In this document: in pieces, positions 42,465 through 43,248 of the stretch
How the letters are laid out: the number at the start of each line of letters is the position of its first letter
Numbering within the stretch: position 1 is the stretch's first letter
From: Escherichia phage vB_EcoM_P8
Reading direction: 5' to 3' (one strand)
Sequence record: PV390659.2
Length of the DNA stretch: 64,000 nt
Position numbers and translations under genes: made by a program
Notes under the pieces: generated by a model
The model's input: only the letters and a program-made list of their open reading frames with translations
What the model was told of the DNA's origin: nothing
Databases searched by the model: none

Positions 42465-43045
42465 TGATTAAATTGGTATTCGCTTATTCTCCGACTAAAA
42501 CAGTCGAAGGCTTTAATGAATTAGCATTCGGCTTAGGTGATGGTTTACCATGGGGACGAGTTAAAAAGGACCTTCAGAATTTTAAAGCTCGTACTGAAGG
42601 CACGATTATGATTATGGGTGCTAAAACGTTCCAGTCATTGCCTACATTACTTCCAGGTCGTAGACATATTGTAGTGTGTGACCTCGAGCGTGATTATCCT
42701 GAAACTAAAGACGGTGATTTAGCACATTTCTATATTACATGGGAGCAGTACATAACTTACATTTCTGGCGGTTCAGTTCAAATATCAAGCCCTAATGCAC
42801 CATTCGAGGCTATGCTTGACCAGAATTCTAATGTAAGTGTAATTGGCGGACCCGCTCTACTATATGCTGCATTACCTTATGCAGATGAAGTAGTTGTTTC
42901 TCGCATCGTTAAAAGGCATCGTGTTAATTCAACGGTTCAATTAGATGCAAGTTTTCTTGATGATATAAGCAAACGTGAAATGGTTGAAAGTCATTGGTAT
43001 AAAATAGATGAAGTAACAACCCTTACGGAATCAGTATATAAATGA
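42464..43045 (+). CDS. frd: dihydrofolate reductase
   Basis: 193 aa [37 protein letters not shown]... matches T4 Frd. Confidence 0.9.
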
Positions 43046-43248
43046 GCAATAAATTAAAAGTTAAGGATGTTCCTAATGCTATGGCTCTTTTTATTTGCCG
43101 GCAGATGCATCAAGGGCCTATGACACCAAAACAATATCTTAAAGGTGAGCGTTCTTTAGGATTTACTCGCAAAGCAAAACAAATGGTTAAATTAGGATAT
43201 AAGCCTAACTTTGCCAAATATCCTTCTACATATTCTTGGATGAACTAA
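43042..43248 (+). CDS. hypothetical basic protein inserted between frd and td
   Basis: 68 aa; ATGA overlap with frd stop and TAATG overlap with td start. Confidence 0.5.

Follow-up and report, generated by a model that had tools for sequence, protein, structure and literature searches.

In the 64,000-nucleotide stretch of DNA analysed here (Escherichia phage vB_EcoM_P8, sequence record PV390659.2; hereafter the window), frd and td are separated by an open reading frame of 68 codons which is very probably a true accessory gene of the frd–td slot, dispensable to the phage, lost from T4 and lately exchanged among T-even phages. The frd–td junction is a slot for accessory genes occurring in three states, and the textbook ATGA overlap of T4 is the exceptional one. 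An earlier note on this DNA had described the 68-codon ORF between frd and td with its translation, and stop/start overlaps at both of its ends; on re-reading of the sequence the translation is identical and both overlaps are read directly. The features of the region, in window coordinates, are the following:

42464–43045, + strand: frd, dihydrofolate reductase, 193 aa (ORF list; so annotated in PV102577, a record of 100% identity, and in relatives)
43042–43248, + strand: the 68-aa gene, PHROG 9550 family, with an ATG start and 68 aa plus stop (window sequence and ORF list)
43248–44108, + strand: td, thymidylate synthase, 286 aa, uninterrupted, with neither the group I intron nor I-TevI
43042–43045, + strand: ATGA overlap of the frd stop (TGA, 43043–43045) and the ORF start (ATG, 43042–43044), the same ATG being the td start in T4
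43246–43250, + strand: TAATG overlap of the ORF stop (TAA, 43246–43248) and the td start (ATG, 43248–43250), with one base in common
43046–43251, + strand: the 206-nt segment missing in T4, bounded by the direct repeat AATGA (43041–43045 and 43247–43251)
43040–43291, + strand: island of near-identity to the Dhakavirus JS10, from the nucleotide mismatch map

The window frd equals T4 frd in length. A frame of 68 codons stays open by chance with a probability of about 0.005 at 35.6% G+C, and the ORF list contains no overlapping ORF of at least 40 aa on the opposite strand under it; conservation is more decisive evidence for the gene than this probability. Between phage genera the dN/dS of the ORF is 0.14–0.17 at a dS of ca. 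1–1.9, that is, with synonymous sites near saturation, and selection therefore acts on its amino-acid sequence. The 68-aa protein shares 81, 69, and 62% amino-acid identity with its counterparts in Marfa, CIP9, and 4S, the respective values being 47, 48, and 42% for Frd and 73, 75, and 76% for Td, which puts the conservation of the ORF across genera on a par with that of td and far above that of frd. The alignment of 13 relatives contains 24 invariant columns. These sequence comparisons show that the ORF is a genuine gene whose protein is kept by purifying selection.

The 68-aa protein matches PHROG 9550, a family of unknown function, from end to end (E = 1.3e-45; residues 1–68 on profile positions 1–68 of 68). 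It has all the residues conserved throughout the family, K4, K6, P11, R20, K34, G40, M48, and L51-G52-Y53-x-P55, as defined by alignments of 22–23 relatives with identity down to 33%. A tblastn search with the protein returns 237 phage records, comprising 134 with at least 90% amino-acid identity (Tequatrovirus and Dhakavirus), about 30 with 60–81% (T4-like phages of Klebsiella, Enterobacter, and Serratia), and 72 with ca. 40–43% (Phapecoctavirus and its relatives); examples of the family are found in vB_EcoM_BMB16 (PV102577), pSs-1 (gp245), Marfa (gp177), CIP9 (gp059), and phAPEC8 (gp235). An exhaustive search of 1.8 billion representatives with a HMMER profile yields only about 10 small phage clusters, all of 70–96 aa, and PHROG 9550, with about 10 clusters at 50% identity and lengths of 68–96 aa, is a small, phage-only family. 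A eukaryotic repeat protein (P0026) obtained in the same search was dismissed as spurious. The window carries no paralog of the 68-aa protein elsewhere.

The whole frd–ORF–td stretch is 100% identical to that of Escherichia phage vB_EcoM_BMB16 and 92–98% identical to that of many Tequatrovirus genomes, in nearly all of which the ORF is annotated as "hypothetical protein"; a CDS so named is present in more than 100 GenBank records of T4-like phages. The ORF is thus an already known feature, catalogued in PHROG 9550 and widely annotated, of an uncharacterised family, and a literature search for work on it found no paper. The earlier note would have been refuted by reference T-even genomes with the same ORF annotated and of known function; half of this is the case, the ORF being annotated there but with no function assigned. 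The presence of an already catalogued ORF adds little in itself, and current understanding is unchanged by it unless a function is found. The names given to the CDS include two odd ones, "DUF4858" in Shinka (MZ502379) and "flagellar biosynthesis protein" in PYPS2T; in the Pfam search the protein matched neither DUF4858 nor any other family at E ≤ 10. In the RefSeq record of JS10 (NC_012741; locus L006, 1501–1707) the ORF is not annotated, leaving a 200-nt "gap" between frd and td, yet its frame is intact and the protein 98.5% identical. In Shigella phage SH7 (KX828711; locus L014, 592–799), where it is likewise unannotated, the ORF is broken by an extra A that turns AAAACAA into AAAAAAAA, so that the locus is a true pseudogene unless the homopolymer was misread in sequencing, and in one IMG/VR contig (L031) it is split into two overlapping segments.

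In T4 (NC_000866), frd lies at 145109–145690 and td ends at 145112, so that the two genes share 4 nt and no other gene separates them, in agreement with the direct overlap of frd stop and td start given in the earlier note. Purohit and Mathews reportedly described this T4 overlap in 1984. The RB69 junction is also empty, with frd joined to td by a 4-nt overlap. Such junctions are rare. A 300-nt T4 junction probe matched 514 records, and in an evenly spaced sample of 60 of them a contiguous T4-type junction was found in 5, a T2-type junction with an interruption of about 416 nt in some 40, and the window-type junction with a 206-nt interruption in 11; direct queries give ca. 363 records for the T2-type insert and ca. 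136 for the 68-aa ORF at 95% nucleotide identity or more. The T2-type insert encodes a 115-aa protein of PHROG 1928, a family of unknown function, whose sequence is unrelated to that of the 68-aa protein. In Tequatrovirus the slot has three states: the PHROG 1928 gene alone (T2 type, the majority), the 68-aa gene alone (window type), or neither (T4 type, rare). Since members of T4's own genus of both the T4 and the T2 type lack the 68-aa gene, it is dispensable.

In more distant Straboviridae the two families occupy the slot together, as in Marfa, CIP9, 4S, and three contigs from IMG/VR (the IMG/VR scan, run with a narrower alignment, gave 9 loci); in the fullest arrangement frd is followed by one or two PHROG 1928 paralogs of 111–126 aa, then by the 68-aa gene and td. 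Wherever it occurs in the Straboviridae genomes examined (Tequatrovirus, Dhakavirus, Marfavirus, Kanagawavirus, Serratia phage 4S, and the IMG/VR contigs) the 68-aa gene adjoins td with a stop/start overlap, and in four other genera this overlap has the form TAATG (Marfa, 4S, JS10) or GTGA (CIP9). The PHROG 1928 gene resembles the 68-aa gene in its use of the same slot, its dispensability, its unknown function, and its co-occurrence with the latter in Marfa, CIP9, and 4S, but in T2 it has spacers of its own, 20 nt upstream and 45 nt downstream, and no overlaps. At the T2 locus (L009, 775–1122; also L010 and L011) it is the 115-aa gene, the commonest occupant of the slot in Tequatrovirus, and the 45-nt spacer between it and td contains a promoter-like TTGATT...TATAAT. 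The BASEL label "putative homing endonuclease" for this T2-type gene lacks the support of a Pfam domain, and the gene is unrelated to the 68-aa one.

The direct frd/td join of T4 is thus an exception among T4 relatives, an empty junction being rare. This reverses the polarity implied when the ORF was first described as inserted: the gene stands directly upstream of td, its stop/start overlap intact, in Straboviridae as distant as Marfavirus, Kanagawavirus, and Serratia phage 4S, and from this and the rarity of the empty junction T4 is best read as a deletion derivative. The simplest history, with a polarity taken from the distribution of the genes, is a slot occupied in the ancestor and followed by differential loss, in which the first PHROG 1928 gene would have survived in the T2 type, the 68-aa gene in the window type, and neither of them in T4 and RB69. 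That T4 lost the 68-aa gene is, on distribution rather than a rooted tree, the most likely course of events.

The boundaries of the 206-nt segment were set by eye from both sequences, as a MAFFT pairwise alignment with T4 put the gap wrongly. Each AATGA repeat bounding the segment is followed by a similar ...CAATA... sequence (ATGAGCAATAA vs. ATGAAACAATA), and the T2-type insert is bracketed by AAATGA. The starts of the 68-aa ORF (43042–43053, ATGAGCAATAAA) and of td (43248–43259, ATGAAACAATAC) are alike in the pattern ATGA..CAATA, so that in all genera examined the cassette is flanked by a direct repeat, imperfect and roughly 12 nt long; it may be a coincidence or a trace of recombination at the slot. 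The T4 junction would have arisen by deletion between the short AATGA repeats made by the coupled stop and start signals, which would explain a precise loss leaving td still coupled to frd. That the boundaries fall exactly on coupled stop and start signals points to a simple way for cassettes to be gained and lost cleanly inside an operon.

The geometry of frd, the ORF, and td fits translational coupling of the 68-aa gene within the frd–td unit, from which we infer its expression. Upstream of the ORF and td starts the Shine-Dalgarno sequence is at best GGAA/TGGA. No promoter- or terminator-like sites were found within or at the edges of 43042–43248, their regional counts equalling the shuffle expectation, and an internal promoter for td was looked for and not found. 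RNA folding at the two ORF junctions is no better than that of shuffled sequences (z = −0.7 and +0.7), so no structure hiding the td start was detected (z = −0.7), and an Rfam search of the segment gave no match. The earlier proposal of a translationally coupled frd–td–nrdA–nrdB operon is compatible with the geometry of the frd/ORF/td part; beyond it the window has no overlap, the td stop lying at 44108 and the next downstream ATG at about 44133. Further downstream (44666–48160) nrdA (44666–46930) is followed directly by nrdB (46982–48160), a single ORF of 392 aa; unlike in T4, mobE is missing here and apparently so is the nrdB intron. In T4, td is split by an intron (locus L005, 3236–5113), and a td intron with its endonuclease is present in the ORF-carrying relatives EC121, YUEEL01, TOPO13, LH2, and Maryam. 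Since carriers of the ORF occur both with and without the td intron, the two polymorphisms are independent.

The 68-aa gene of the window is far more similar to that of the Dhakavirus JS10 than its neighbours are. Nucleotide identity is 97.6% in the ORF (202/207), compared with 81.0% in frd and 77.0% in td, i.e. flanks of 19–23% divergence. The left edge of the island lies at most 3 nt from the ORF ATG, with mismatches dense up to 43039; the 207-nt ORF itself has only five mismatches, of which four are at the third position of a codon; and the right edge lies 11–44 nt into td, where lone mismatches at 43259 and 43292 are followed by dense ones from 43304. Synonymous divergence from JS10 amounts to 0.52 in frd and 0.69–0.75 in td, compared with 0.10 in the ORF (Fisher p ~ 1e-10). 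The same pattern, in a weaker form, is seen within Tequatrovirus, where the ORF is 97.6–99.5% identical, frd 87–96%, and td 94–98%. In genera with older alleles the ORF has undergone heavy synonymous change (pS 0.55–0.69), and the island is therefore a recent exchange of one allele and not a sign of general nucleotide constraint. By these divergences, the allele common to Tequatrovirus and Dhakavirus is far younger than its flanks, and a cassette of about 206 nt has therefore moved lately between the two genera. The cassette itself codes for no mobility function. Recombinational exchange in mixed infections is well known for T-even phages, and crossovers at or near the conserved junctions in such infections are an economical explanation. 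Against Marfa the synonymous divergence of the ORF (0.55) is again below those of frd (0.75) and td (0.87; p = 0.0004), which could reflect extra synonymous constraint, the codon bias of a short gene, or a further, older transfer.

Outside the Straboviridae, homologs of the 68-aa gene are not adjacent to td. In phAPEC8, gp235 is located at 10.35 kb among small early genes and td at 45.7 kb on the other strand, 35 kb apart; six metagenomic homologs belong to arrays of small genes and have no td in their vicinity, one of them standing between PIF1-type and DnaB-type helicase genes, and no recurrent neighbour family stands beside the distant homologs. The metagenomic contig L007, carrying the distant homolog P0024, also encodes a Tad2-like protein (PF11195; 286–669, − strand) at a distance of about 4 kb on the opposite strand. 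With homologs far from td in Phapecoctavirus and in metagenomic phages, a position in the nucleotide-metabolism operon, where the earlier note placed the ORF, does not imply a functional link to nucleotide metabolism.

The protein itself is strongly basic, with a pI of 10.26 and 13 Lys/Arg vs. 2 Asp/Glu residues. AlphaFold2 gave a poor model from 13 close sequences (pLDDT 54) and a better one (pLDDT 82.5) from a 22-sequence alignment whose distant members came from the HMMER profile search, with three predicted helices at residues 13–24, 29–38, and 43–50. The conserved basic residues are K4, K6, R20, and K34, with K4 and K6 in the N-terminal arm, and G40 lies in the turn before helix 3. Pfam contains no family matching the protein at E ≤ 10 and gives no consistent match in 22 family members; NCBIfam and profile searches of PDB sequences were equally without a match, whether the query was the protein alone or an alignment of 13 or 22 members, and a BFVD structure search recovered only the family itself. 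The top Foldseek matches in the PDB are homeodomains, at non-significant values (E 1.4–9, TM 0.36–0.39), so that no significant fold or profile relative emerges from Pfam, NCBIfam, PDB profiles, or Foldseek. Homeodomain-like and other three-helix HTH domains share with the 68-aa protein a length of ca. 60–70 aa, a basic N-terminal arm, three helices, and an invariant Gly before helix 3; on the predicted model this likeness is a lead, not a finding.

Taken as a whole, the best explanation of these data, which we consider moderately probable, is a genuine accessory gene together with a deletion history, a translational coupling, and a polyanion-binding role of the product that we infer. Ribosomes ending on frd would translate the 68-aa gene, using the context that serves td in T4, and those ending on the 68-aa gene would in turn reinitiate on td. 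The strongly basic three-helix product with its conserved lysine-rich N-terminal arm would bind a polyanionic partner, nucleic acid being the first guess, and would be a stand-alone accessory factor of the early or middle period, not a dedicated partner of thymidylate synthase. In its full form, in which the gene is translated by ribosomes arriving from frd and handing over to td and the product alone binds a polyanion, probably nucleic acid, in early to mid infection, this scheme is put forward tentatively and may well be wrong in some part.

Conservation like that of td in a gene that is nevertheless dispensable, and an allele that swept two genera, are typical of episodic, host-dependent selection, which makes the 68-aa gene a reasonable candidate for anti-defence and host-takeover screens. 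As an alternative, the partner might be a host protein and not nucleic acid, with the product acting as an anti-defence or host-takeover factor and the frd–td slot serving as a convenient, well-expressed parking place. The patchy occurrence among close relatives and recent lateral spread agree with such a role, as do the small size of the protein, its lack of a known fold, and the homologs in early small-gene arrays, one contig having the Tad2-like gene 4 kb away. This evidence is circumstantial, however; the protein has no similarity to characterised anti-defence proteins, no co-varying host defence was identified, and we regard the proposal as unlikely, though worth keeping in mind.

A somewhat smaller chance is given to a protein dedicated to thymidylate synthase or to the dNTP-synthesis complex as its partner or regulator (it might be a small subunit or a chaperone, or might regulate the translation of td), with the obligatory coupling to td setting the stoichiometry. 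The gene overlaps the td start in every Straboviridae genome examined, whatever lies upstream, a strict adjacency that could reflect a td-related role within this family, and its conservation tracks that of td. However, T4, T2, and RB69 have a functional Td without the 68-aa gene, Phapecoctavirus has both genes 35 kb apart on opposite strands, none of the six metagenomic homologs is near td, and the td start is not sequestered by RNA structure (z = −0.7).

A bolder version of the accessory-gene reading, which we think improbable, ascribes the movement of the 206-nt cassette to recombination at the stop/start signals themselves, with AATGA...CAATA on both sides, and the Tequatrovirus/Dhakavirus sweep to the activity of the encoded new-fold nucleic-acid binder. 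If it were true, translational-coupling junctions would double as portable recombination sites at which small genes are gained and lost precisely with their expression kept, and the activity of the cassette could consist, e.g., in countering a host defence or in tuning the expression of the nucleotide-synthesis operon.

Another explanation of the mobility, a very doubtful one, is a selfish cassette, a remnant or hitch-hiker of homing-endonuclease-type mobility that spreads without benefit to the phage. It would account for the presence/absence polymorphism at a precise site between conserved genes and for the sharp island of 97–99% identity between flanks of 77–95%, and the T-even nucleotide-metabolism cluster does host such elements, I-TevI and mobE being annotated in T4. 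On the other hand, a GIY-YIG or HNH enzyme would need more than 68 aa, and none of the 22 family members has a nuclease motif or Pfam match, so that a homing endonuclease as such is ruled out; a decaying remnant would not show the strong, long-range purifying selection, and homologous recombination in mixed infections plus selection suffices. Finally, a non-protein spacer or leader that hands ribosomes over between frd and td, or an element regulating at the nucleotide level, for which speak the overlaps at both ORF ends and the unusually conserved nucleotide sequence in Tequatrovirus and Dhakavirus, is hardly credible given the conservation of amino acids (dN/dS 0.14–0.17 at saturated synonymous sites), the homologs away from any coupled context, a segment devoid of promoter, terminator, and Rfam match, and a T4 that needs no spacer, the RNA-element form being ruled out by folding no better than shuffles (z −0.7/+0.7) and the lack of an Rfam match.

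The accessory gene of the frd–td slot can be likened to two known kinds of mobile segments. The first are the free-standing homing endonuclease genes of T-even phages (seg and mob, among them mobE between nrdA and nrdB, and intronless homing), which are likewise optional inserts between conserved nucleotide-metabolism genes with an empty site in relatives, here T4 and RB69, and whose sequence is likewise younger than the flanks; unlike the seg and mob genes, the 68-aa gene has no nuclease domain, and its protein is conserved over long distances. The second are the cassettes whose PeSL-mediated shuffling (PMC2839356, 2010) is analogous to the cassette exchange described here. In the PeSL cassettes and the frd–td cassette alike, short repeated boundary signals would serve as recombination points, and small non-essential ORFs would be gained, lost, or swapped. 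A PeSL consists of a strong sigma-70-like early promoter and a terminator hairpin, whereas the frd–td cassette is bounded by stop/start AATGA signals, with neither promoter nor terminator found, and the frd–td slot, unlike the hyperplastic regions in which PeSLs act, lies inside a core operon. The defining features of both systems being missing, what the 68-aa cassette shares with homing-endonuclease insertions and PeSL cassettes is their behaviour in phage populations.
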